The notes: generated by a model not told the origin, from the letters alone. Positions 8,836 to 45,880 are shown, numbered from the stretch's first letter. The stretch is DNA of 55,154 nt from Candidatus Collierbacteria bacterium GW2011_GWC2_44_18 (GCA_001000865.1 LCIE01000003.1:2531-57684), one strand, 5' to 3'. A program made the numbers and translations.

Positions 8836-11800
8836 CTAGTTAAATTTATATATGTTTATTTCCCCTGAGTCAAAGATTTTCTCTAATTTTAGATCAGCTG
8901 GATTTAGATTTATCCGTTTGAGCCTAGTTTCGTAAACATATTTAATATTGTTTTTCTCTAAAAATGAGACACCCCAATCCTTATCTTCCGTGTCATAAAA
9001 ACGTTGGACGTCGCGAGCCCTACCAACATAATCGAAACCGGTAATATCCAAATTTATCGTGTCGGATAAGAACTCTGGTTGCCCAGAGAGTGCTGAAATA
9101 TAGGCAGTTGAAACATAGGCATAAAGAGGTTTGGGTGCCGATACACGACTAGCCGCCACCTCATCGTAGAGTGGAGACAGAACGATCCCTTTTGGCTCCG
9201 CTCGAAGCTTGTCCAGTGCCAATAGTTCGGTATAACTTAATCGTGAGGATGAGAAGTAACCGACGTAGTCCTTGAGGGTCCCGACAGTGGTGGCGATTGC
9301 GAGGAAGATGAGAATGATGACAATAAGATATTTAATGAAACCGAGTATGCGGAGATTTACCCCTTCGGGTATCAGCGAGCCCCGGTTCGAGTACAGAAAC
9401 CCTGCCTGCCGGCAGGCAGGTCGCAATGACGAAATGTATTTGGCGGTGAAAATGCCTAGAAAGAAGAGAGCATAGTACATGAACTGGATGGTGTTCCAGG
9501 GATTGATGTTTTGGATAAATAGAAGTGGCAACAATAAACCAAAGGCAATAATCCAGCGGACAATTGTTTCCGAATCAGAATGAGATTTTGACCGACTTAT
9601 TTCAAATAATCCCAAAAGACGGACTCCAAGATTCCCAACTAAGAATACAGCAAGAGCAAATAAATTGATTAAGCTAAGTTTAGCGAAGTTTCCCAAGGCC
9701 TCGTAGGCCTGCCAGGCTTCGACCAGACGAGGCCAGTAGACACGATCAAACGAAGCAAACAGACTGCGGGGGAACCAGAGAGGAGAAAATATAAATGGAG
9801 CCGGACCACCCAGCGTGGTAAAAGGAAGGGATATAAGAATACCGATGGCGAGGACGCCTGTAAATAGCTTGTATTTCTTGGTAAACAAAAGGGCTCCGAG
9901 TAAAAGGATAAGGGCGTAGACTTTGGTCTGAGCCAGGAGGCCACCGAGTATTACCGCAAGGATGGAGTGAGACCTGGCCGTAGGTACACGGCATCTTCGA
10001 CCTGCCGACAGGCAGGTTGCCAAGTTTTTTCGCAATGACGGTTTGGACTGGATTGCCGCGTCGGTCGCCTCAGGCGACCTCCTCGCAATGACAACAAGAA
10101 AGAGAAGGAGGAGAATGATCGAGAGGGCGTAGGGAGGATTCAAAAAGATGGAGACTGATTGGTTCGACCAGAAAGCCGATTCCCCGGTAAATAAGTCCTG
10201 ACCCATCAGTATTTTGGGGATGAATCCGAAGGAACCGGCGAGAAAAACTAACAAAATGGACAGTAGTCTCTCCGATCGGGAGTAATGCCAAGTTTTAAGA
10301 AGTTTGTCTAATAACAAAACGATGGCGATACCGGCCAGAATAGGAAAGACGCGGAAATAGAAGTCTAAGGTAGAGAGACCGGAAAGTTTGACCACAAGTC
10401 CGGAGATAAAATCAAAGAGGAAGTGATAGTTGGCTATTTTCTCACCTGCTATCTGAGGATGGGAAAAACTAAAAGAATTGGAGGAAAATTTTTCGATTAA
10501 AGACAAATGAAAAAGGGCGTCATGGCCATTGGGACCCCAGAAACCCATACCAAAAGGATAAAGGAGACCGCTGCGAAAAACCGTTAGACTGGTGAGGAGA
10601 GCAACTATGACTCCTAGTATTATGGTGGAGTGAGACCTGCCTGCCGGCAGGCAGGTTGCAAAGTTTTTTCGCAATGACGATAAACGTGATTTTTTATTCT
10701 TCTGAATAATTAGGGTGATGGTTATTAAGCCGAGAAGCCAGAAGGGCCAAGTGGAATGAGAGGCGTTTTTGAATGGGATGTATGGAGTTATTTTCCAGAT
10801 AACTCTGGCATTGGATACAAGGAGTTTTATGTCTTTGGAAACAACTACCGGTGCGGTAAAATTGGAGAAGACTATTTTGTCAGGCTGAAGAGTAAGTAAC
10901 TTTCCGTCCTGCCATAGTGAAGTTTGCCAGTAGTCCCACTGCTTGGAACGGACAAGATCGGCTTTTTGTAAATCTATATCAAGAACTACTTCCTTACCGG
11001 GAAATTTTACCGAATCAATCACCGCCGGAATTTCGTGGAAAAGACCAAGATCCTGATTGGGGGTAGTAAGGTAATCTTCGTAAATTTCTCGATTGAAAAC
11101 TCTGAAATCGATAATATAGGTTTTGCCGTTTTCCGACTTGAGACCAAGACGGTAGAAGGGACTCTGGTACCAAAAAACCTTACCGGAATTGACCTCGGTG
11201 AGGTCTCCGGTCTGATAAAAATAGGAAGGAGAACTTTCGGGATAACGGGCTTTGAACCAATCTCCAAAGTCCGAAAGTGAGATGGGGTGAAGATTAAATT
11301 TGTCGTGATTGACCTTTAGAGCTCTGTAAACGTTGTTAATTTCATTTTTGTAGAGAGTCAGATCGTAATCATTCTCTAAGCCAATATTTACGTAGGTAAA
11401 CTCGTTGACTCCTTTTTGATTGTACATAGCGAGCAACTTTTCAAAATACTTTGTGTCTTGACCCAACGCCAAATAATCGTTTACCTGAACCGAATGGAGA
11501 GAAGCGTTATTGGATCCGTAAAAATTAAACAGGTCTCGTTGAGCCCAGCGAACCATGGCCAAATTGATACGATTTCCGAAACTGTAGGCTGGTATTAATG
11601 AATTGTTTTTATCGGGAAAATAGGGGCTACCGAGATATCCACCCCACAAACGATAACTATCGGTGTTGTATTGATCGTCGCAGTTCATGGCCGTCAAGAC
11701 TGAATACTTGGACTGAAGATACTGCAAACTATAACTATCCAAATGCCATGCAGATACCGACTTGGGGTAAAAACCAAAACTAACAAAAAAGGCTGACATA

Positions 11801-35826: not shown

Positions 35827-36993
35827 CTAGTCGCTCCGGTGTCTAAAATACAGGACACCTCCGGCAAGTGAGGATATGATGACCCCAAAAATAAAGGTGT
35901 ACTTCAGGACGGAGTTTGGAAGGCTGAGGGCGTGGTTGCTGGGTGGAAACTGAGATATCTGGATTGCCGCGTCGCTATCGCTCCCCTGCCTGCCGGCAGG
36001 CAGGTCGCCAATGACGACGCTAGAAATGGTGGAATCAGTGAAGATGCCGAGAATAGAAGAAGGAGAGGAAACTGATGGAGTGAGATTGCTTTGGTTAGGA
36101 GTACCTAATCGCGCAATGACGAGGGTGGGGGTGAGAGTTTTGAATGGAGTAGGAGTGGGTGTTTTAACGGTAGTTGGTGTTGGAGTTTGGATGGAGGATG
36201 TAGTGGAAACGGAAGTCGGGACCGGGCTAAATATCGGGCTTATCTCGTAATTTCCTCCCGGAGAAAAATTCCGCTGTTCGGACCACTCGGAGTAACCGGC
36301 CTTAATTAGCTTGGTAGTGTGCTCCCCCGGCCCACAAGGAACCAGCTTGTCGTTATCGCAAAAACATCCAGTACAAAACTCCAGAGTTTCACCGTCTTCG
36401 TGATGGGTATACAAATTGTCGATATAGATTTTTACTCCGGTAAGCAGTTGATTGTTTCCGTCTTTGGGCGGATTGATCTTGTAAATGGATTTTGCCGGAG
36501 TTGGAGATGGAGATTGAGTGAGAGTTGGTGTCTTGGTAGTGGGGGTAGCTGTTGGCGAAACCGTTGGGGTGGCGTCTAAGACCGAAACAGTGACAGGTGA
36601 AGAATCATAATTAGTTGCGATATCTGCCTTCCTGATTCTAACTTTGAATTCTTTTGAACCGGTGGCTGTAGCCGGATCGAAGCGACACTCTATGGTCGTC
36701 TGGGCATTGCCATCAGAGTCAGAAGTGAAACTCGGCATACTGGTCCAGTCGGCATTTTGCTGAAGCCAGCTAGAATTCCAAGTGTCTACCTCCGAAAAGG
36801 AATTACCACCCAATGCTTTCATAAAATATGATGAACTTAGGCTTAATCCAGAAATGTTGAAGGAGGGAGAGAATTTTTCTCCAGCTACTACTGATGGTGG
36901 AAATGAAGAAACAGTGACAACAGGTGTAGCCAAAACAACCAAGGGAAAATAGGCAAATAAAAAAAGAAACAACACGGGCAGGATTTGTTTCAC
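35827..36993 (-). CDS. secreted PT-rich surface protein with C-terminal TM anchor
   Basis: Signal peptide MKQILPVLFLFLFAYFPLVVLA, Pro/Thr linkers (TPTVSPTATPTTKTPTLTQSPSPTP), C-terminal FIFGVIISSLAGGVLYFRHRSD. Repeats 35961..36016 and 36082..36121 are read in frame. Confidence 0.65.
   Translation of the reverse strand: MKQILPVLFLFLFAYFPLVVLATPVVTVSSFPPSVVAGEKFSPSFNISGLSLSSSYFMKALGGNSFSEVDTWNSSWLQQNADWTSMPSFTSDSDGNAQTTIECRFDPATATGSKEFKVRIRKADIATNYDSSPVTVSVLDATPTVSPTATPTTKTPTLTQSPSPTPAKSIYKINPPKDGNNQLLTGVKIYIDNLYTHHEDGETLEFCTGCFCDNDKLVPCGPGEHTTKLIKAGYSEWSEQRNFSPGGNYEISPIFSPVPTSVSTTSSIQTPTPTTVKTPTPTPFKTLTPTLVIARLGTPNQSNLTPSVSSPSSILGIFTDSTISSVVIGDLPAGRQGSDSDAAIQISQFPPSNHALSLPNSVLKYTFIFGVIISSLAGGVLYFRHRSD
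35961..36016 (+). repeat. hairpin repeat with perfect 20-bp palindrome, inside a CDS
   Basis: GGATTGCCGCGTCGC...CCTGCCTGCCGGCAGGCAGG(35985..36004)TCGCCAATGACG. Confidence 0.85.
36082..36121 (+). repeat. hairpin repeat GAGATTGCTTTGGTTAGGAGTACCTAATCGCGCAATGACG, inside a CDS
   Basis: Similar to unit 22881..22920 (GGTTCGGAGTACCGAAACGCGCAATGACG). Confidence 0.75.
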
Positions 36994-37014
36994 TTAAATA
37001 CTAATATACAGAGG

Positions 37015-37117
37015 GGATGGATCCCGGGTCAAGCCCGGGATGACGAGGTGGGATGGAATGAGATTTACCCCTTCGGGTATCAACGAGCCCCGGCTCGAGT
37101 ACGAGACTCGCAATGAC
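37015..37117 (+). repeat. two hairpin-repeat units (CCCGGG...GGGATGACG unit; GAGATTTACCCCTTCGGG unit), intergenic
   Basis: Second unit 37060..37117 is near-identical to 9352..9400. Track ORF 36994..37317 is largely these repeats translated. Confidence 0.85.
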
Positions 37118-37276
37118 AGGTGAGGGGTATATAAAGAAAAAGAACTCCTTGCGGAGCCTTTTTCCGATTTACTATTGCTAGTATCTCTGATCGAAAACTT
37201 GCGTTCTCGACTGTTTATAGTTATATCCCCTTGCAGGATACATGTCAAGAGGCAATTGTGCGTTTTGGCTCGTGAA

Positions 37277-37867
37277 CTAGAGCGATAAGAAACCAAAGTC
37301 TGTAAATTCCGGAGCAAGTTCCAAGTCGACTATCAGATATTGATCTTGATCACCAAAGTTGGTACAGAGAAGTGCCCTGGATAAGGGGAAAAGCTTTCTG
37401 CCAATATCAAACAGTACGTCCCCAGGAATATATTGATTTGTCATTTTGTACTTAAAAACATCTTCCCCTATCTTCATACCTTGATACGAATCTCCATCTA
37501 TTTTTTCTTCACCAGTATCGGAAATATCTAGATCGGAAGATGTGGACTTGAAATTAAAGACAACATCTTCCACCGGCGAATCATAGTCTAAGGTGAAAGC
37601 TCTTCCTTTTTCCTGTAAATAATCTATGAAAATCTGAGACACATCAGCTGTGATTCTAAACTGAATCCCCTCCATCCAGATTTTTTCTGGATTTTTAACA
37701 GTTCTACTATTCTGCAAAAAGACCTTCTCGTCCTCAATAATATTCCCTGAGATTTTCGACAATGTCGACTTTGGAAAAACTTCGCTGAATTCCTCAGAAG
37801 ATAATAGATTGGCTTTTTTGGCGAGAATAAAGAGATCCCCTGCCTGTTGTTTTACTTTTGGTTCCAT
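37277..37867 (-). CDS. hypothetical acidic protein (island gene 1)
   Basis: 196-aa ORF with no TM segments and no recognisable motif. It is divergent from the 37960 operon. Confidence 0.5.
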   Translation of the reverse strand: MEPKVKQQAGDLFILAKKANLLSSEEFSEVFPKSTLSKISGNIIEDEKVFLQNSRTVKNPEKIWMEGIQFRITADVSQIFIDYLQEKGRAFTLDYDSPVEDVVFNFKSTSSDLDISDTGEEKIDGDSYQGMKIGEDVFKYKMTNQYIPGDVLFDIGRKLFPLSRALLCTNFGDQDQYLIVDLELAPEFTDFGFLSL

Positions 37868-37959
37868 TTAGTAATTTTAGCATTCAAACTCAGGGGTGGT
37901 AGAATTCTTCCAGATCGTGAGGGCGGAACCTTGAAAATCTAAGCAATAAAGGAGGACTT

Positions 37960-38469
37960 ATGTCCCAAGCTTGTTGCAAAATTCCCAGTAACGAAGACGT
38001 TCAAGCAATAAATGAGTCTGTAAAAAAGAATTTTGCTGCAGAGAAACCAAAAGTATCACCTGCGTTAAATTCGTTTCAGGGAGATATTGGTGAAATGATT
38101 GCGGCACAAGTGGCAACAGAGCAACTTAACCTGAGACCGGAATTCTACGACTCACCGGGAAAATCTGAAAAGGGAATTGATCTTATTTATCGTGATGGAA
38201 GTGGAAAACTAGTTCTTATAGAAGCTAAGAATACCGAAAAAGGTGCAAGGGCATCCCCCACAACAACCAAAACATATGGACGTGAAGGATCCATTGAGTG
38301 GATTGAATATCACGCAAAGCTAATGTGTGATCCATCGTCGAGCAGATATTCACCAGACAATGCGAAATTAGGTGAAGAAATTCTTAGAGTTGGAGCCGCC
38401 AATGTGACTTTTTATATTATCCACACAAACCCGTCGACATTAAAAACAGATACCGTAAAAATTAGGTAG
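37960..38469 (+). CDS. small PD-(D/E)xK nuclease-fold protein with an MSQACCKIP... leader (island gene 2)
   Basis: AAGGAGG SD 6 nt upstream. GDIGEMIA (E45) ... KGIDLIYRD (D74) ... LVLIEAKNT (E88-x-K90) has the order and spacing of restriction-endonuclease-like (YraN/Hjc-type) cores. Confidence 0.6.
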   Translation: MSQACCKIPSNEDVQAINESVKKNFAAEKPKVSPALNSFQGDIGEMIAAQVATEQLNLRPEFYDSPGKSEKGIDLIYRDGSGKLVLIEAKNTEKGARASPTTTKTYGREGSIEWIEYHAKLMCDPSSSRYSPDNAKLGEEILRVGAANVTFYIIHTNPSTLKTDTVKIR

Positions 38470-38479
38470 AGGAGGATGT

Positions 38480-39634
38480 ATGCCATCTACAGAACAAGTG
38501 ATTAAGGGCTTGGAAGTTTTTGAGGCCCAAGTGAAAGCTTACGATGAGAAGTTTCGGAAAAAGAAGATCCTTCCCAAGAACCATGACTGGAGACCTTATC
38601 GCTGGTGTTCGAGGGATATTGTCTTTGCCCTGCTCGTGGTACAACAAAACCGTAAGGGAAATTATCTGGACGTCGATGTTTGCCTAATTGCTCAGCCACC
38701 CCAGTATATCGAAAACAGCGGTGCCAGAGTGGCTCTCGGATTTTTGCTTTCCGAAGCTTACAAATGTGGTGGCACAATGGAGCTGGTTTTTTCGAAAAAC
38801 ATCGAAGGTGGCCGAGTTCCTGCCTACATCTGCGACCTGGCAATTGAAATGGGGGTGAAGCTCAAACATGTTTTTGAGGGTCACATTACCCCGTTTGAAT
38901 CTCGCCAACTGTATCTTGGTTTGGCAGGATTTTCCAAAATGGCTCAAGAAAAGATAATGAAGATGGCGGTAGACAAGACCATTTCCTCGGAACGAGTTTG
39001 TTTTATGGTAATGGGTGGTGTTTGGTCTCTGCCGGAGGCCGAAACGATTATCTTAGGAAGTAAACACCCTGAAAGAGTTCTCCAATCGGCATCCGAACCG
39101 GACGAGCGACATCTGTATTTGAATGACTTGCTGGTAGCCAGTACCTCTATACTGGGTGGCGTTTTAGATCGCAAACTGCTCAGGACGGAACTAGTGGAAA
39201 ACGGGCAAATAGTGGAGTCCGAGGACGAAGAGTTTCCGCTAGTGATTGACTTCGACCCGGTGCACTTCGCCAAGATTTACAGGGCCGAAACCGACATGAT
39301 TGTGCCATGGATTGATGAAAATAAAATTTTGTTTTCCGGGCAGAAAATGGTGGTATTAATCCGCGCCAGATCCGACAGCGAAATTCAAAAGTATTTCCCG
39401 AAAGACCTGGAAAGTTTGAAGAAACTCATCGCCAAATATCGCAAAGACGCCCAAATCATGATTTTGTACTTACTTCCAAGAGATTTTGAGGATGTGTCTT
39501 TGACTACACAATCACAAATTATCGAACAGCTAAAGAAAGCGGGGGTGTACCTAATGATCTCACCGGAGAATATGGCCAGTCTAAACAAAGAAGCCATTCG
39601 TAGACTGGAAACCGGAAGGAGAACGCGCCAATGA
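38480..39634 (+). CDS. hypothetical 384-aa protein (island gene 3)
   Basis: GAGGAGG SD. It starts 10 nt after the upstream stop. No Walker A, no TM segments, no motif recognised. The C-terminal ~100 aa has an alternating beta/alpha pattern (VVLIRA...IMILYLLP...VYLMIS). Confidence 0.6.
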   Translation: MPSTEQVIKGLEVFEAQVKAYDEKFRKKKILPKNHDWRPYRWCSRDIVFALLVVQQNRKGNYLDVDVCLIAQPPQYIENSGARVALGFLLSEAYKCGGTMELVFSKNIEGGRVPAYICDLAIEMGVKLKHVFEGHITPFESRQLYLGLAGFSKMAQEKIMKMAVDKTISSERVCFMVMGGVWSLPEAETIILGSKHPERVLQSASEPDERHLYLNDLLVASTSILGGVLDRKLLRTELVENGQIVESEDEEFPLVIDFDPVHFAKIYRAETDMIVPWIDENKILFSGQKMVVLIRARSDSEIQKYFPKDLESLKKLIAKYRKDAQIMILYLLPRDFEDVSLTTQSQIIEQLKKAGVYLMISPENMASLNKEAIRRLETGRRTRQ

Positions 39635-40779
39635 TGAAAACTAATGTGATTTTAGTGTCTATCCCCGATGCCGATTGCATCGCCGACAGACTAGACCTGC
39701 GCGTCCTGATGGCACGGGCATTGAAAATTGAGGCGAGGATGGAGAAAGGGGTAAATTTGGAAGATGAACAACGCAGGTATCAAATTCTCTGCGACCGAAT
39801 GGAGTACCTGGGGAACCTGATTAGTGGCACAAAAAAAATAGAATCCGTGAATCTGGGAGATAACTATCTGGAATTACTGCTGCTGATGAAGAAAAAGTTT
39901 CCAGAAGAAACGAAACAGGCCGGAGTAATGTCTAACTTTTGTCCTGCTTCCTTCGTGGAAAAACAAATTGCCTTGTTCGAGGGCTTGGCTAAAAAGACAG
40001 GTTTACTCGAACATGAAGAGATCCAAAAGAAGATTAAGTTTTACCGAATGGCGGCGAAGCAAAACTGGAATGTCTTGGAACTTCAAGAATTGACAGCCGA
40101 TGAGGAAACAGATGGTAGCGTTTCCGTAGATAACCTCAGGGAGAAGTTTCTGTCATTGCCTATGAGTGACGGAATAACTTCAACACAAGACTCAAATTCA
40201 TTCATGGCCTTGCGAAACCAGATGAATCGAGTGATTGCCGAAGTGAATAAAGGTATTTCGACGGGGGTGAATTTTAGCGATTTGTCACATAACGTGATCA
40301 CTGAAATTCTGAACGAGTTTGTGTTTGGTGCCGGCAAACCTATGTACCTTCCGGTAGTTTATGCCGATGGCACGAAAGCCAGACCGTTTCCAATTCACTG
40401 CCTAAAACTACCTGAAAGGGGTAAAGTGATAAATCTTCCCGGACCGGTGATAAACGTGGGGCAGTTAAGTGGTAGACATCAGGAGATGGATCCGAAGATG
40501 AATATTTATTTCTTCCGGAACCAAGAGATCTCCACCGGGAAAACCGCGGCGGAAATTGACGGGGTGGCCTATCAAGAAGCGAAAAAGATCTTCGAAGGGC
40601 TTCGAAGGGAAGGGGTTTATCGAATTGCCTATTACCAAACTGGGTTCCAGCCGGCCGTGGTAGGCTTCTACCGGGCCCTCACTGAAGAACTACTGCTAAA
40701 AGGAAAAAGGGCACCGGTCTTGGAAGTGACACCTTACTACTTCTTTGGCCACTATGAGAAAGGTAAAACCTGGATCTAA
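39631..40779 (+). CDS. hypothetical 382-aa protein (island gene 4)
   Basis: ATGA start/stop overlap with gene 3. No recognisable motif. Followed by terminator 40793..40823. Confidence 0.6.
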   Translation: MMKTNVILVSIPDADCIADRLDLRVLMARALKIEARMEKGVNLEDEQRRYQILCDRMEYLGNLISGTKKIESVNLGDNYLELLLLMKKKFPEETKQAGVMSNFCPASFVEKQIALFEGLAKKTGLLEHEEIQKKIKFYRMAAKQNWNVLELQELTADEETDGSVSVDNLREKFLSLPMSDGITSTQDSNSFMALRNQMNRVIAEVNKGISTGVNFSDLSHNVITEILNEFVFGAGKPMYLPVVYADGTKARPFPIHCLKLPERGKVINLPGPVINVGQLSGRHQEMDPKMNIYFFRNQEISTGKTAAEIDGVAYQEAKKIFEGLRREGVYRIAYYQTGFQPAVVGFYRALTEELLLKGKRAPVLEVTPYYFFGHYEKGKTWI

Positions 40780-40792
40780 CCTATTTCAAACA

Positions 40793-40823
40793 CTGAGAGT
40801 GATTATTCACTCTCGGTTTTTTT
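40793..40823 (+). terminator. intrinsic terminator of the 37960-40779 operon (between convergent genes)
   Basis: CTGAGAGTG-attatt-CACTCTCGG stem-loop followed by T7. The hairpin overlaps the last codons of the minus-strand gene 40803..41204. Confidence 0.65.
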
Positions 40824-41204
40824 GTAAATATCGTGTTTATGGTAATAATCGTTGTCCAGTAAGTGTTTGTTTTCTTCAAAATATTTCTTTACTTCTAACA
40901 AAAATTTGTCAGTAGTGTCTGTGTCTTTGATGGCCAGGTGATACTCCATTTCTGAAATATCGTCGAGAAGCTGTCCCAGACCGGAATCAAAATGTAGATA
41001 GAAACTATAATTGTCGGCGTAATATATTCGGTTCGCTACGCCGGAAAGAACCTCGACACTAATTCTTTTCTTCAGAAAATCACTGATGGCACATAAAAAT
41101 ACATGCTTGGCATATTCAGAGTTCACTATTCTGACCGACCCATGAAAGCCCAAGTAATCGTCGATTTCTTCCGGGTCAAATGATATTTCGATTGTTTTGC
41201 TCAT
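40803..41204 (-). CDS. hypothetical acidic 133-aa protein (island gene 5; immunity-like position)
   Basis: ORF immediately downstream of, and co-oriented with, 41252..41641. No motif recognised. Confidence 0.5.
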   Translation of the reverse strand: MSKTIEISFDPEEIDDYLGFHGSVRIVNSEYAKHVFLCAISDFLKKRISVEVLSGVANRIYYADNYSFYLHFDSGLGQLLDDISEMEYHLAIKDTDTTDKFLLEVKKYFEENKHLLDNDYYHKHDIYKKTESE

Positions 41205-41251
41205 AAAAAAGACTAAGGCAATTTTACACCTTAGTCTGTGTTTTTTTGAAG

Positions 41252-41641
41252 CTATTTGTGACGATTTTTGCTTCCCTTTGAAACATTTTGGTTGGTTGAG
41301 TGGTCTCTGACGACTCGGCCACTACTGTTGACGGTATAAGAATGCCGGACATTGGTGGCGGTGTTGACCGTGGTGTAGTGAATACTACCGTCCTTTTCAT
41401 AGGTTTCAACCTGGATGACATCTCCAGGATTGTAAGGAGATATTTTTTGAACAGAACCATCTTGCTGTACCTTTGTTTGGCCTGAAGAAGGGGTTCCGGA
41501 GTTTTTGGCATCTTGGGTCTGTTCTTGAATATATTCTCGAATAGCTTCTTCGTCGGCGCGGATTTCTTGGTACTCCAGAATAGAGTCTCGAATGTGCTGA
41601 ACATCGTCAGGTGTCGGAATTTTTCCACAACATTGAGACAA
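41252..41641 (-). CDS. small protein with MSQCCGKIP... leader paralogous to the 37960 N-terminus (island gene 6)
   Basis: TTG start preceded by AAGGAGG. The first ~21 aa, MSQCCGKIPTPDDVQHIRDSI, align with MSQACCKIPSNEDVQAINESV. The C-terminal domain is unrelated. Confidence 0.55.
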   Translation of the reverse strand: MSQCCGKIPTPDDVQHIRDSILEYQEIRADEEAIREYIQEQTQDAKNSGTPSSGQTKVQQDGSVQKISPYNPGDVIQVETYEKDGSIHYTTVNTATNVRHSYTVNSSGRVVRDHSTNQNVSKGSKNRHK

Positions 41642-41710
41642 GAGAGCCTCCTTAAAGTGCGAATTTAAGCCATTGTACCATTTAACTTTTGGGAGTTTGA
41701 GCGTAAAATC

Positions 41711-41775
41711 GGACTAATCCTATTTAGGATGACACTGGAGTGAGATTGCCACAGCACTGCGTGCTTCACAATGAC
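41711..41775 (+). repeat. two short hairpin-repeat units in the divergent promoter region of the island
   Basis: GGACTAATCCTATTTAGGATGAC and GAGATTGCCACAGCACTGCGTGCTTCACAATGAC. Confidence 0.6.
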
Positions 41776-41814
41776 ATTCTATGAAGGAACTTTGAAAACT
41801 AAAAGGAGAAACAT

Positions 41815-44433
41815 ATGCCTAAAACGACAACAGAGTTTGAGGTGATGTGTAAACGTTGTAATACCGAAAAAATTGGCTATTCCGGCATGATGTACGAAAA
41901 AATGAAAGGGTATGGCCAATCCCGCCCTGAGTATTGTGAAAATTGCCGAAAAGCTCTTCTACTGGAAAAGATGACCATGGGAGCGGCCTATTTTTCGGTG
42001 AAGACTCTTCCTGGTGAGGATCTAACGATTGCTCTCCCGGGAGAACTAGGGATGGTTTACCACCCCCAGAGGCCACATGTGAAGGCAGAAAAAGCGACAA
42101 CTTTTGACGCCGGTAAGTTTGGAGCGACACCGGACAAAATCGTGGATGTGTATAAATGGTTAAAAGACAAGAACCACCAAGTAGCCATTATTATTGGCGA
42201 AACCGGATCCGGCAAATCGACAGCACTTCCCTATTGGCTCATTTATCCGCCGGTGGGTGTACCAAAAGATTTTTTCACCCGTGATGGCCAAATCCTGATT
42301 ACCCAACCGAGAATTGTGGCCACCACTTCGATTGCCAAGTATTTGGGCTCGCTTCTGGGATCTTCGGTGGGTAAGGGGTTTGATATTGGTTACAGATACA
42401 GTAAAGACCGGAACAATGACCGATTTAATGCCGCCTTTCTGGCTACTGACGGTAGCCTGATTAATATGATTATGAATGGCCAGCTGTCAGACCTGAGTGT
42501 GATTATGATTGATGAAGCACATGAACGATCGGAAAACATCGACATTATTCTCCGACTCCTAAAAGATCAACTACCTCTGTATCCACACCTGAAGCTCTTG
42601 ATTGTAAGTGCCACCATCAACAAAGAGTCTTTTCTTAAGTATTTTGGTGAGGACACGGCATCGGTGATTGAATTTGAAGCAAAAAGAAAATTCGAGTACA
42701 AAAAGGTCTTCGCTACCGAAAAAGAAAAATTGCCCTACGAAGATCTTCATAAACTGAGAGATTGTTTGGTGCCGGCACTCGTTGCAAAGGTTCTTTGGCT
42801 TTTGGATGAGCAGGTAGCCGGAAGAAAAACTCTCGAAGTCGTGATAGATAAAAGAAAGGTAAAAGCCAACACCCTTGCTTTCCTGCAAGGAGTGAAGCCG
42901 ATTGAGGAAGCAGTGAATGCGCTTACAAAGGCGATTGCGGCCAGTCCCACCCTGAGAAATAAGGTGGAAGTTTACCCGCTATATAGCGACTTGGAAGAAA
43001 AGAAAAAAGACTTGGCTCTGGAAGGGTCCGGCTCCGGAAAAATTCGCGTGATTATCTCTACCAATGTCGCCGAAGCATCGGTTACCGTGAAAGGCATTGT
43101 ATATGTGGTGGAAACCGGTGTGGAAAACCAGGCGAACTGGAAATCCGATACCTTACAGACAAAGGTGGGTTTGAATCTCATCAGCCAAGCAAACGCGAAA
43201 CAACGTTGGGGCCGCTCCGGCAGAACTGCTCCGGGTGAAGTTTATTGTCTTTACACCGAAGAACAGTTTAATAGGATGCTCCCCTTCCCCGTTCCGGCGA
43301 TTCAAAGATCGTCGATGGAAGACGTCATTCTGCTTTTGAAAAAGCTTGGGGTGGATGAACTCGATAGTGGGTGGATTGATAATCCGAATGGAACCGAGCT
43401 AACACGATCGATGGATTCGCTTCACAAAAGCGGGGCCATTGATGAAGATGACAGGCTGACTGAGTACGGCTCGATGCTGAAAGAGTTTGCATACACCGCT
43501 ACCCTCACCGACCTCATCATCATGTCCGATAGATTTGGATGTGCTGTAGAAGTGGCAACGATTTTGCCGGTAATTAAGAATGGAGGACACAAATATCTGT
43601 TGGCCAGAAATGATGAATGGGACAAGAAAGAACAGCAAAAAGCTAAAGCCGCTCATCAAATACTTTGGAAAAACTGTAAAGATGACGTGGAATTTATCCT
43701 GAAGCTGTATAGCTTATGGAGAGAACGCGGTGAGAAATGGGCCAAAGAATTTTACGTCAACCATGAAGTATTTAAAGATATTGAGGCGGAAAGAACACAG
43801 ATCTTACGTCTCTTGAATGGTCACAAAAAAGACAGCAACTTCCGGGCCATCGATTTTAAATTGGTAGATAGAACGCGAGTAATTTTAGCCTATTGTGTCC
43901 CTTTCACCGTGGTGCCCGAAGGGACTTACTCCTATAAAGCCAATCTCCAAACAGCGTCCGGCACCAGCGCCGCTTACCAGATGGTTCTGTCTGAAAAGAA
44001 GAAAAAGATTGTGGACGAAAATATTGCCAACACTCGATCCCTCTTTGCGCTGGCACGGGAATTGGTGGAGATAGCGAAGGATAGTGAAGCAGATGACGTG
44101 TACGCCAGGGTCTTTGCAGACGCCAACCTCACTTTGGAAGAAGCGATCAGCCTGCTCGAAGATGAACAGAAAGACAAGATCCTCAATACTTATGCTGTCG
44201 GACAAACTTTGGAAGCGAAAGTGACTGGCTTTGCCGATTATGGCACCTTCGTGAGACTGCCACTGGGAAACTCGGGAATGATCCATATCTCGAAGATGGG
44301 AAAGTGGGTGAAAAAGCCAAGCGAGATGCTGACCGTCGGTGACCTAGTCGAGGTGGAAGTGTTAGAAATGAAGGAGGAAAAAGAGAAGGTCCGGATAGGT
44401 TTGAAACTAAAGTCGGTGATTAAAAAGGCTTGA
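41815..44433 (+). CDS. DEAH/RHA-type SF2 helicase with N-terminal CxxC...CxxC Zn-ribbon-like region and C-terminal S1 domain
   Basis: CKRC..x25..CENC; GETGSGKST (I, nt 42196), TQPRIVA (Ia), DEAHERS (II, nt 42511), SATIN (III), TNVAEASVTVKGIVYVVETG (V), QRWGRSGRTAPGEVYCLYT (VI). HA2-like SLHKSGAIDEDDRLTEYG. S1-like GQTLEAKVTGFADYGTFVRLPLGNSGMIHISKM...VGDLVEVEVLEM...RIGLKLK. Confidence 0.85.
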   Translation: MPKTTTEFEVMCKRCNTEKIGYSGMMYEKMKGYGQSRPEYCENCRKALLLEKMTMGAAYFSVKTLPGEDLTIALPGELGMVYHPQRPHVKAEKATTFDAGKFGATPDKIVDVYKWLKDKNHQVAIIIGETGSGKSTALPYWLIYPPVGVPKDFFTRDGQILITQPRIVATTSIAKYLGSLLGSSVGKGFDIGYRYSKDRNNDRFNAAFLATDGSLINMIMNGQLSDLSVIMIDEAHERSENIDIILRLLKDQLPLYPHLKLLIVSATINKESFLKYFGEDTASVIEFEAKRKFEYKKVFATEKEKLPYEDLHKLRDCLVPALVAKVLWLLDEQVAGRKTLEVVIDKRKVKANTLAFLQGVKPIEEAVNALTKAIAASPTLRNKVEVYPLYSDLEEKKKDLALEGSGSGKIRVIISTNVAEASVTVKGIVYVVETGVENQANWKSDTLQTKVGLNLISQANAKQRWGRSGRTAPGEVYCLYTEEQFNRMLPFPVPAIQRSSMEDVILLLKKLGVDELDSGWIDNPNGTELTRSMDSLHKSGAIDEDDRLTEYGSMLKEFAYTATLTDLIIMSDRFGCAVEVATILPVIKNGGHKYLLARNDEWDKKEQQKAKAAHQILWKNCKDDVEFILKLYSLWRERGEKWAKEFYVNHEVFKDIEAERTQILRLLNGHKKDSNFRAIDFKLVDRTRVILAYCVPFTVVPEGTYSYKANLQTASGTSAAYQMVLSEKKKKIVDENIANTRSLFALARELVEIAKDSEADDVYARVFADANLTLEEAISLLEDEQKDKILNTYAVGQTLEAKVTGFADYGTFVRLPLGNSGMIHISKMGKWVKKPSEMLTVGDLVEVEVLEMKEEKEKVRIGLKLKSVIKKA

Positions 44434-44457
44434 CAATGGGAGATCTTGGCTTATAAT
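44430..44457 (+). promoter_or_regulatory. sigma70-type promoter (TTGACA-16 nt-TATAAT)
   Basis: Perfect -35 TTGACA (44430..44435, overlapping the helicase TGA stop) and perfect -10 TATAAT (44452..44457). Confidence 0.55.
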
Positions 44458-44463
44458 ACAAGA

Positions 44464-44742
44464 TTGGTAAAAGGCGGTCTGGGCATAGGGCATTTTGGTC
44501 TATATAGAGTTCGGGTTTCCCGACCTCCAGTGCCTAGCCTTGTTCCCGGAATTTGCTTTAGTGCCGGTGCGACTCCGTGCCCGGGTTTTAAGCCCGATTC
44601 CACCTTCCGGTGGGAGAAGTTGACAAAGAAGTACCGCGTTTGAACCGTATTACCGACTGGTTCAAAAAGGTGCCCTCCACTGGGGGGTGAACTTCTGAAG
44701 TCAGCTATTGAGCCTCTTGTGAAAACGAGAGGCTTATTTTTT
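44464..44742 (+). ncRNA. candidate structured ncRNA of unknown class (~280 nt)
   Basis: Bounded by the consensus promoter and an intrinsic terminator, with no plausible CDS. It is locally GC-rich and has several clean hairpins: GAGuuCGGGuuuCCCGacCUC, CCGGUGCG-acuc-CGUGcCCGG, CCACC-uucc-GGUGG, UUUGAACC-12nt-GGUUCAAA. Confidence 0.45.
44711..44742 (+). terminator. intrinsic terminator
   Basis: AGCCTCTTG-tgaaaa-CGAGAGGCT stem-loop followed by TATTTTTT. It lies 5 nt from the stop of the convergent M23 gene. Confidence 0.7.
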
Positions 44743-44746
44743 GGGC

Positions 44747-45880
44747 TTATTGGACGTGAAGATAGAAACTGACTACCTCATCAGGATGTTCGATATAGAC
44801 GATGTGAATGGTACTGGAACCACAGGCCTGCGAAGACTTAAATAAGGTTCCGTCGGCTGGTGCACGGATAACATCACTACTCGTAGATACCATGTCATAG
44901 CCCGTGTGTTTACCACCGGAATATTTGTACCTCCAAGAATAGGGTGTACTCCCATAAAATTGAGTGAGGCGAACAGTATCTTCCAACGGCCAAGTCCAGT
45001 TACCGGAGCCAATTCTAATATCTCCGCGATTATCCTGCTCGTCTTTGACTGTTTTGGGAGACAAGTATTGACCGGGGTCGGTCCACTCGCCATTTTTTCT
45101 AATTTCAAAATGTAGATGTTTGCCGGTAGAACAACCTGGATAGCCGGAATTACCGGTAAGGGCGATTGGGTCTCCCTTTTTTATTGGACCAACCTTGACT
45201 CCGGAAACCAATGCTTTTTCAATGGCTGCTTTTTCGTCTAACGCTTGTTGCAAAAGTTGTTGGTATTTTTTTTCGTTGTTTTGAGTGTCTAGAAGCATGG
45301 CTTGCTTTTCTTTTAATAATTGATTTTGAGATCTTTTTTGTGTCTCTAGTTTGGTCTTCAGTTTTTCGATTTCCTGCTGTTTGGTGACTTTGGTTTGTCT
45401 GCGGAGATCGTAATCTTTACGAGAGTTTTCTAGCTCCGAAAGAATTAATTGATCTTTTGATTTTAGGGAATTCAGATATTTTAATTTGGTGAAGTAATCG
45501 CCAACAGAATTTGTAGAAAAGATAAGATCGATAGGAGTGACTCGTGAACGGCGGTAACTTTCACGAACTCTTGCCAAATAAATCTTTGTTAGTTCTGTTA
45601 AAGATTCGTTAACAGTGTCCAAAACTCCGCTCAGAACAGTAATATCTTTTTCCAAAGAGGCAATTTGGGAGATGGTCTGGTTTACCTGCCCCTGGATGAG
45701 ATTAATTTTGGTATTGAAGACGGCAATTGCCTGCTTGTGAGTGGCTTCTTCATCACTTAGCGTCTGAAGTTTCTGGGCGCAAACATCAATCGAAGCGGCC
45801 GATCCATCACATTCGATTGCCCTGATAGGGCTTGCTGGTAGAAGAAGTAGAAGAAAAAAAACAAAAACTAACTTTCTCAT
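44747..45880 (-). CDS. EnvC-like coiled-coil M23 peptidase with permuted M23 motif order
   Basis: Signal peptide and a long coiled coil, then VKVGPIKKGDPIALTGNSGYPGCSTGKHLHFEIRKNGEWTDP (the HxH half) precedes GGKHTGYDMVSTSSDVIRAPADGTLF...IVYIEHPDEVVSFYLHVQ (the HxxxD half). It overlaps ftsX by 4 nt. Confidence 0.75.
   Translation of the reverse strand: MRKLVFVFFLLLLLPASPIRAIECDGSAASIDVCAQKLQTLSDEEATHKQAIAVFNTKINLIQGQVNQTISQIASLEKDITVLSGVLDTVNESLTELTKIYLARVRESYRRSRVTPIDLIFSTNSVGDYFTKLKYLNSLKSKDQLILSELENSRKDYDLRRQTKVTKQQEIEKLKTKLETQKRSQNQLLKEKQAMLLDTQNNEKKYQQLLQQALDEKAAIEKALVSGVKVGPIKKGDPIALTGNSGYPGCSTGKHLHFEIRKNGEWTDPGQYLSPKTVKDEQDNRGDIRIGSGNWTWPLEDTVRLTQFYGSTPYSWRYKYSGGKHTGYDMVSTSSDVIRAPADGTLFKSSQACGSSTIHIVYIEHPDEVVSFYLHVQ

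Follow-up and report, generated by a model that had tools for sequence, protein, structure and literature searches.

A conserved N-terminal cysteine tag on unrelated small proteins of a helicase-linked gene cluster in Candidatus Collierbacteria: a possible docking handle

Polymorphic toxin–immunity systems include those with SUKH (SMI1/KNR4) or TsiV immunity domains (Zhang, Iyer and Aravind, PMC3482391). An arrangement that partly resembles them can be found in Candidatus Collierbacteria bacterium GW2011_GWC2_44_18, in a stretch of 55,154 nucleotides (nt) from contig LCIE01000003.1 (positions 2531-57684), here called the window. Two of its small proteins, A and B, begin with a similar tag of about 21 residues and are otherwise unrelated. 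They are encoded together with two core proteins, X and Y, and with a helicase that has a zinc (Zn) ribbon, a DEAH core and an S1 domain (Table 1). In the reading favoured here, which is given about an even chance of being right, the tag would serve as a tethered handle by which effectors dock onto the X-Y-helicase core of a conflict system not described before.

The cluster resembles polymorphic toxins in several ways. A conserved N-terminal part is found on different bodies, a small co-oriented partner changes with the type of body, the slot for this pair is either empty or filled, one payload has a nuclease fold, and SUKH or TsiV domains are fused to X in other phyla. Unlike in those systems, the conserved part has only about 21 residues and no trafficking domain, no signal peptide, RHS, PAAR, LXG or secretion gene accompanies it, the cassettes are tied to a fixed X-Y-helicase core, and the tagged proteins are just 61-256 amino acids (aa) long. 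The passages of PMC3482391 displayed for the words "helicase" or "intracellular" describe no such helicase-linked arrangement, and literature searches found no description of this system.

A second point of comparison is Hachiman, a defence system that pairs HamA, a PD-(D/E)xK protein, with HamB, a superfamily 2 (SF2) helicase. Both systems place a small protein of PD-(D/E)xK fold beside a large SF2 helicase, both have a patchy, accessory distribution, and HamA/Hachiman chains are among the weak fold matches. However, the PADLOC hidden Markov models (HMMs) for HamA and HamB match none of A, X, Y or the helicase, and the Pfam family DUF1837 is not found in them. The helicase matches only Cas3 models in PADLOC, weakly. 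It is DEAH/HrpA-like with a Zn-ribbon and S1, and X, Y and the tagged exchangeable proteins have no Hachiman counterpart.

The helicase core itself resembles E. coli HrpA and HrpB, matching TIGR01967 and TIGR01970 over about 500 residues. The scores are far below the equivalog cut-offs, and the cluster helicase adds the N-terminal Zn-ribbon and the C-terminal S1 domain. What genomes without the cluster possess is another, HrpB-like paralogue of about 700 aa.

Short terminal peptides are also known to load diverse cargo, as in the capsid-targeting sequence of phage T4 and the cargo-loading peptides of encapsulins and microcompartments. By analogy, the tag would most plausibly work in a similar way: a terminal peptide of about 10-20 residues, a flexible linker, unrelated bodies and a partner encoded nearby. 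The tag has no sequence resemblance to such peptides, and no capsid or shell protein is seen in the cluster. Pfam finds no encapsulin or bacterial microcompartment (BMC) domain there, and X models as GNAT-like plus restriction-endonuclease-like, not as HK97. The scheme in which the head is conserved, the body varies and a cognate partner is added is thus known from polymorphic toxin–immunity systems. A Cys tag of 21 residues, nucleic-acid machinery of cytoplasmic type and a fixed core of X, Y and helicase set the cluster apart from them.

Both tagged open reading frames (ORFs) begin behind an AGGAGG ribosome-binding site 5-6 nt upstream of the start; the sequence directly upstream is aaAGGAGGactt for A and taAGGAGGctctc for B. 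When A and B are compared by BLASTP, the alignment is confined to residues 1-21, where 12/21 positions are identical and 16/21 positive (E = 5e-6 for the pair). The common consensus is MSQxCxKIPxxxDVQxIxxS. The original prediction, made from the window's sequence, had proposed such a leader on two unrelated proteins, and both the leader and the unrelatedness of the bodies are borne out; its count of 11 identical positions out of 21 is one lower than that of BLASTP. In a six-frame scan of the 861-kb, 38-contig genome, exactly two copies of the tag have zero mismatches, those of A and B, and everything else has at least four. A 134-aa ORF with a GTG start (41224-41628, minus strand) overlaps B almost fully in another frame; it is without homologue support and is probably spurious.

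Since only 21 residues are shared, the likeness might be ascribed to chance or to a functionless recent local duplication. Beyond the initiator codon, A and B encode 5 of their 11 identical residues by different codons, so that a recent duplication of DNA is not the source. Together with the pairwise E value and the conservation of the tag in both families over at least 30 loci, again with differing codons, this refutes the explanation and leaves it practically no chance.

The tag is conserved far beyond the window. All 39 homologue clusters of A, at 42-99% identity, have it, and in an alignment of 30 A sequences M1, Q3, C5, K7, P9 and D13 are each at least 90% conserved. B has eight more homologues with the tag, and protein P0049 has the tag alone in common. 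Two cysteines shortly after the initiator Met had been noted as a pair. Two are indeed kept, but not as a fixed pair: C5 is the invariant one and the second lies at position 4 or 6 (QCCGK or QACCK).

In 15 leader genes of related loci, a purine-rich motif like the Shine-Dalgarno (SD) sequence precedes the start by 5-9 nt in every case, weakly in the B1 gene of locus L007 and the A gene of L013. Synonymous codons are mixed at the conserved residues: Gln is CAA in seven and CAG in seven, and Pro and Ser each use four codons. Because of these two features, the leader is almost certainly translated and is selected at the level of amino acids, rather than lying upstream of the real starts. Judged by these sequence patterns, the tag is a real protein element.

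The tag is also highly specific. A 30-column profile searched against 1.84 billion representative proteins gives 13 matches. Eleven of these are true N-terminal matches, all of them A-type or B-type small proteins of 61-245 aa, and the remaining two are repetitive proteins matched internally. A degenerate 38-nt DNA pattern of the tag has 21 matches in metagenomes, and 21/21 are tagged A or B genes with an SD sequence. Further proteins with the leader thus exist, as the 11 profile clusters and the 21 pattern matches attest. In 400 genomes sampled across the phylum, the ATG-started form of the pattern occurs in the window's own genus only. Named genome records with A belong to Candidatus Collierbacteria or to unclassified Patescibacteria.

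Four loci (L003, L004, L007 and L009) come from metagenome-assembled genomes titled "uncultured Pseudomonadales bacterium". Their gene content is as in Collierbacteria loci, and L003 and L004 also show long-range synteny with these. The Pseudomonadales label is probably wrong.

Between the tag and the body lies a spacer of about 10 residues at its shortest; at its longest it is an E/R/K-rich linker of about 100 residues (P0053, P0056, B2). The bodies themselves fall into A, B1/B4/B5 and B2/B3, and without the tag B1 cannot be aligned with B2 or B3. This agrees with the proposal that the tag is a separable N-terminal module carried by different payloads. A docking handle is favoured because the length of the tether varies, the bodies are unrelated and the tag occurs only in this cluster. 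Among the roles first suggested for the leader, recruitment of effectors by a common partner best fits its strict confinement to one gene cluster.

The tag has two parts: a coil, M-S-Q-(C/A)-C-(G/C)-K-(I/V)-P, and a short amphipathic helix, x-x-(D/E)-D-V-x-x-I-x-x-S-I, which in this mechanism would together act as a separable address tag. On its flexible linker of variable length, the tag would most likely allow small proteins of two kinds to dock onto one partner that the cluster itself encodes. The first kind would be the constant PD-(D/E)xK nuclease A, acting as a fixed effector. The second would be the exchangeable B, travelling with its own cognate partner as a fast-evolving accessory pair of a conflict or anti-phage system. 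The shared partner would most plausibly be an X-Y complex working with the Zn-ribbon/DEAH/S1 RNA-type helicase. As the receptor X is preferred, because its homologues elsewhere have SUKH or TsiV toxin-binding heads and because it has invariant cysteines, both as might be expected where toxin-like partners are held; Y, the helicase and a neighbouring 196-aa protein are further candidates. What we infer is that docking takes place physically, which protein is the receptor, what the cysteines do chemically and what the system does biologically.

Tag variants within a genome tend to be concordant. For instance, A and B share G2 in L006 and V8 in L009, and in L007 both tags are degenerate. In these concordant tags 9-10 of the 12-13 shared residues differ in codon. 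Rare variants held in common, in tags whose shared residues mostly differ in codon, point to co-evolution with a common receptor rather than to recent gene conversion. In a permutation test of A/B tag identity within five genomes, 6/120 permutations were as extreme as the observed pairing.

The body of A had been described as PD-(D/E)xK-like, and this is well supported by fold matches and invariant residues. In an AlphaFold2 (AF2) model built from 30 sequences (mean predicted local distance difference test, pLDDT, 80), residues 1-10 are coil, 11-26 form a helix, 28-41 are a disordered linker with pLDDT below 50, and an alpha/beta domain follows. Its secondary structure agrees with an alpha-beta-beta-beta-alpha-beta core, and E45, D74, E88 and K90 (E88-x-K90) are invariant in the 30 sequences, giving the E...D...(D/E)xK order of the superfamily. 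Nearly all listed Foldseek matches are PD-(D/E)xK nucleases, with E from 7e-3 (Exo5, cap-snatching endonuclease, SPARDA, Cas4, HamA and NucS). Most matches in VIA have the endonuclease fold, with Z up to 7.6 (Hjc, tRNA-splicing endonucleases and VRR-NUC). The fold matches span residues 28-169 only and none covers the tag. On the strength of the model, A would be a putative nuclease.

Directly upstream of A, and divergent from it, is the gene of the 196-aa protein. It holds this position in every Collierbacteria locus with sequence there, at 22-68% identity, and the divergent neighbour of A is 127-197 aa long across loci. The 196-aa protein is a candidate cognate partner of A.

X has 118 homologue clusters. 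Its AF2 model, from 53 sequences, has a pLDDT of 91.6 and a predicted template modelling score (pTM) of 0.86. According to VIA, residues 221-363 have a restriction-endonuclease fold (XisH 2okf with Z 9.3, and also NucS, Can2 and Card1), and residues 2-150 resemble GNAT acyltransferases, including TacT, AtaT and NatE, with Z 6-7. The N-terminal domain is thus tentatively modelled as GNAT-like. C96 and C174 are invariant across phyla. Outside Collierbacteria, most X homologues are 530-560 aa long with an N-terminal SUKH domain, and one has TsiV. Both domains are immunity-type domains of polymorphic-toxin systems. SUKH-headed homologues occur in Pseudomonadota and Chloroflexota; by Pfam the window's X has no SUKH domain, which is present only in the longer homologues of other phyla. 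In two loci, the X homologue aligns as two pieces in different frames (L018, 3044-4157; L034, 5821-6968), which may reflect a frameshift, a pseudogene or an assembly error in these metagenome contigs.

Y always follows X, and in L013 the two are fused into one 845-aa ORF. They are not paralogues of each other (hhalign probability 0.2%). PDB sequence-profile searches with X and Y were empty, a search of the ESM Atlas gave no usable match for either, and searches of viral contigs and of phage genomes did not turn up X.

The GNAT-like domain of X matters for an alternative in which the tag is mainly a chemical site. Its vicinal cysteines could bind a metal or an Fe-S cluster, serve as a redox switch, or be S- or N-acylated, possibly by X, and so anchor or switch the protein. 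The constancy of C5, in at least 90% of sequences and always flanked by a second Cys at 4 or 6, would fit such a site, as would the tags of other phyla, which keep little beyond M-(A/G)-C. The GNAT-like domain matches N-terminal acetyltransferases and acyltransferases, and X has the invariant Cys96 and Cys174. However, the next 12 residues are conserved too (P9, D13, V14, I17 and S20), which a bare chemical site does not need, and the degenerate tags of L007 are without one Cys in genes that are still intact. No acyl-CoA-binding motif was verified in X. The leaders do not fit the eukaryote-type N-myristoylation/palmitoylation motif (M-G-x-x-x-S/T, with Cys nearby); position 2 is Ser in 9/15 and Gly in two only, A and B of L006. 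The alternative also overlaps with docking, since a Zn clasp or a disulfide is a form of docking. As a separate explanation it is unlikely.

The second docked kind in the favoured reading, B, varies in its body. With the tag removed, hhalign relates B1 to B4 (probability 94%) and B4 to B5 (89%), finds a weak likeness between B2 and B3 (31%), and shows B1 to be unrelated to B2 or B3. By these sequence comparisons there are at least two unrelated superfamilies, B1/B4/B5 and B2/B3. The several bodies agree with the idea of variable C-terminal payloads, in a set narrower than had been implied, namely A and at least two B superfamilies. One protein, P0020, is an A-type protein with a C-terminal extension that weakly matches the C-terminal domain of B (hhalign probability 22%, E 1e-3); it is taken as a natural fusion of A with a B domain, the likeness of its extension to B being weak.

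B is followed by a small, co-oriented partner gene whose type tracks that of B. One partner family, of 133 or 119 aa, goes with B1 (the window, L007, L025, L028 and L032). Another, of 149 aa and unrelated to the 133-aa family, goes with B3 (L006, L009, L018 and L028). For B2 in L005 no clear partner was found. In L028 a second tagged cassette (B3 with a 149-aa-type partner, 9017-9778) lies beyond the helicase, besides the B1 cassette in the usual slot. In the window, an 11-bp hairpin with a T-run (41210-41237, minus strand) separates the stop codon of B from the start of the 133-aa gene, beside a weak promoter-like site, and expression of B and of its partner may differ in level.

B cassettes share a conserved left edge, made up of the 5' untranslated region (UTR) and the tag, irrespective of their body. 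For instance, CGCACTTTAAGGAGG is identical before B1, B3 and B4 genes in L015, L025, L028, L032 and L033. Such an edge, and the weak TTG start of many B genes, could suggest a regulatory element that has nothing to do with the cluster proteins. The tag might then be a degron read by a housekeeping protease, a peptide that controls translation, or a handle for recombination in cassette exchange. However, synonymous sites vary freely, which indicates conservation of protein and not of DNA, and the non-swappable A gene is tagged too. A degron of a general protease would not be expected in this cluster only among all the representatives searched. A regulatory role of this kind is very improbable.

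The tag could alternatively be an export or trafficking signal. A and B would then be small polymorphic toxins sent to neighbouring cells or to the bacterium that hosts this episymbiont, and the genes downstream would provide immunity. This would account for the conserved N-terminus with variable C-termini, the co-oriented partner that tracks the type of B, the second B3 cassette of L028, the SUKH or TsiV immunity-type domains on X homologues and the nuclease fold of A. The tag itself argues against it, being polar, acidic and charged, without hydrophobic core, lipobox or twin-arginine motif. Its Cys at 4-6 has no preceding hydrophobic stretch, and no Sec, Tat or lipoprotein signal features are found on direct reading of the sequence. 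By Pfam, no cluster protein has a secretion-system, RHS, PAAR, LXG or WXG domain. The proteins rather look cytoplasmic and nucleic-acid-related (a helicase, S1 and two nuclease folds), the tagged ones, the A homologue of L013 included, do not exceed 256 aa, and A is not polymorphic. Export is decidedly unlikely. The original prediction had invoked the architecture of polymorphic toxins, and of this the varying B cassettes with a co-oriented, type-matched partner stand; A is not variable, no tagged protein is longer than 256 aa, and no signal peptide, trafficking or secretion gene is found.

Several points weigh against the docking handle and the conflict system built on it. The concordance test is marginal (6/120) and its five genomes are not independent. 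The Cys register differs within one genome, with QACCK in A and QCCGK in B of the window. B is dispensable, since its slot is empty in L004/L031, L008, L019 and L034; elsewhere the slot holds a tagged B and a small partner on the opposite strand. The fold evidence is moderate, with Z up to 7.6 and a Foldseek E of about 7e-3 for A and with Z 6-7 for the GNAT-like domain of X. Which of X, Y, the helicase and the 196-aa protein is the receptor is guesswork, three loci underlie the cross-phylum tag, and among the PADLOC models none fits A, B, X or Y. A role of the block in defence is putative.

Wherever a locus has enough flanking sequence, the order of the block is the same: the 196-aa gene, A, X, Y, the slot for partner and B, and the Zn-ribbon/DEAH/S1 helicase. 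In searches of Pfam, NCBIfam, PADLOC and PHROGs, only the helicase has a significant family match among the cluster proteins. The tag, A, B, Y and the core of X fall outside every family in these collections, and so do the B bodies, the 133-aa and 149/119-aa partners, the 196-aa protein and the plasmid homologues described below.

The distribution of the block is patchy. Genomes G245, G518 and G510 each contain A, Y and the Zn-ribbon/S1 helicase, and X was found in the two of these in which it was searched (G245 and G510). In G393 and G530, which belong to the same family and are 98-99% complete in 1-2 contigs, none of A, Y and the Zn-ribbon/S1 helicase was found (X was not searched there); these genomes retain only the HrpB-like paralogue. 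No genome was seen to have the cluster helicase without A and Y, and a search for X in 99 further genomes of the class found none.

The helicase varies in length: about 1200 aa in L005, L006 and L007, 962 in L008, 1442 in L013, 1962 in L036 and 1561 in L037. That of the window has one S1 domain, and relatives have long inserts and several S1 domains, as in the 1442-aa form of L013. This locus, from another family of the order, also has an A homologue with a tag that is divergent yet recognisable, MAQSC...D-M-x-x-I-x-x-S. A link to RNA is suggested for the helicase, because its DEAH/HrpA-like core is joined to a Zn-ribbon and S1. The block behaves like an accessory system, patchily inherited and occasionally plasmid-borne. 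Probably it acts in conflict or against phages, as is suggested by the patchy inheritance, the carriage on plasmids, the two nuclease folds, the RNA-type helicase and the swappable cassette.

Table 1. Features of the tagged cluster, with positions counted from the first letter of the window
Feature	Position	Strand	Description
196-aa protein gene	37277-37867	-	divergent from A; conserved neighbour of A
Promoter-like site for A-X-Y operon	37877-37905	+	TTAGCA, 17 nt, TG-TAGAAT; consensus scan only
ORF A	37960-38469	+	169 aa, ATG start; tag, flexible linker, PD-(D/E)xK-fold nuclease-like domain
Tag of A	37960-38025	+	codons 1-22; coil MSQACCKIP, then start of amphipathic helix
X	38480-39634	+	384 aa; GNAT-like N-domain, helical linker, restriction-endonuclease-like C-domain
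Y	39631-40779	+	382 aa; translationally coupled to X via ATGA overlap
Hairpin with T-run	40792-40817	.	terminator-like; between convergent Y and 133-aa genes
133-aa partner gene	40803-41204	-	downstream of B; family specific to B1-type cassettes
ORF B, type B1	41252-41641	-	129 aa, TTG start; tag, helical linker, small His/Thr/Asn-rich C-terminal domain
Tag of B	41576-41641	-	part of ORF B
5' UTR of B cassette	41642-41661	-	cgcactttAAGGAGGctctc; kept before B genes of different body types
Cluster helicase	41815-44433	+	872 aa; N-terminal CxxC...CxxC Zn-ribbon, DEAH (HrpA/HrpB-like) core, C-terminal S1; Pfam and NCBIfam

Behind the helicase, a perfect TTGACA-16-TATAAT promoter overlaps the helicase stop, and a 12-bp hairpin with a T-run follows at 44709-44736 (region 44430-44742, plus strand). 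The stretch of about 300 nt between them is free of ORFs, and the sequence that immediately follows the helicase gene in L008 is 89% identical to it. With 77.9% identity, the final 77 nt of the stretch match L028 8830-8901, just outside the second B cassette of that locus. A search of Rfam with window positions 36500-45500, which include this stretch, gave no match. The stretch may be an RNA component of the same system.

Related blocks can also be found on two actinobacterial plasmids. X, Y and a giant Zn-ribbon helicase, annotated as S1-domain-containing, lie in a row on a Paenarthrobacter conjugative plasmid, and the same trio is present on a Streptomyces linear plasmid. Of 72,556 plasmids, two carry X and Y. 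On Paenarthrobacter ureafaciens plasmid pB (NZ_CP094491.1; L036, 8099-8560), an unannotated 153-aa ORF that starts with MACGNNH comes immediately before X. Its stop overlaps the start of the X homologue, and at this place the record has just a 73-aa ORF annotated, on the opposite strand. In the corresponding place on the Streptomyces plasmid is a 221-aa protein that starts with MGCQNHG and contains a GDVGE...D...EVK motif. An HMM of the A family does not match it significantly (E 0.054, against 12 sequences), so that its kinship to A is suggested by motif and gene position only. From these N-termini and the divergent tag of L013, the Collierbacteria tag seems to be elaborated from a shorter Cys tag at the N-terminus (M-A/G-C...) of other phyla, which would make the tag older than Collierbacteria.

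A more far-reaching reading combines the chemistry of the cysteines with docking. The Cys tag would be a chemically active loading handle, working as a metal clasp, by a disulfide or thioester, or by being acylated by X through its GNAT-like domain. With this handle, interchangeable effectors would be loaded onto, and released from, an RNA-sensing Zn-ribbon/DEAH/S1 helicase machine, and the whole would be a cross-phylum, undescribed class of conflict or immune system with plug-in effectors. This is possible but doubtful.

The tag can already serve as a practical search key. Its 21-residue profile or the 38-nt DNA pattern retrieves members of the system, including unannotated genes, with almost no false positives. 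The combination of two nuclease folds, a GNAT-like domain, SUKH or TsiV heads and an RNA-type helicase is not joined in any catalogued defence system. The system is present in CPR bacteria, in metagenome-assembled genomes of Pseudomonadota and Chloroflexota, and on plasmids of actinobacteria. Since the two plasmid-borne versions exist in culturable actinobacteria, experiments are feasible. If the tag is indeed a docking handle, it would provide a simple, testable rule for how different effectors are recruited to an uncharacterised helicase-centred system.

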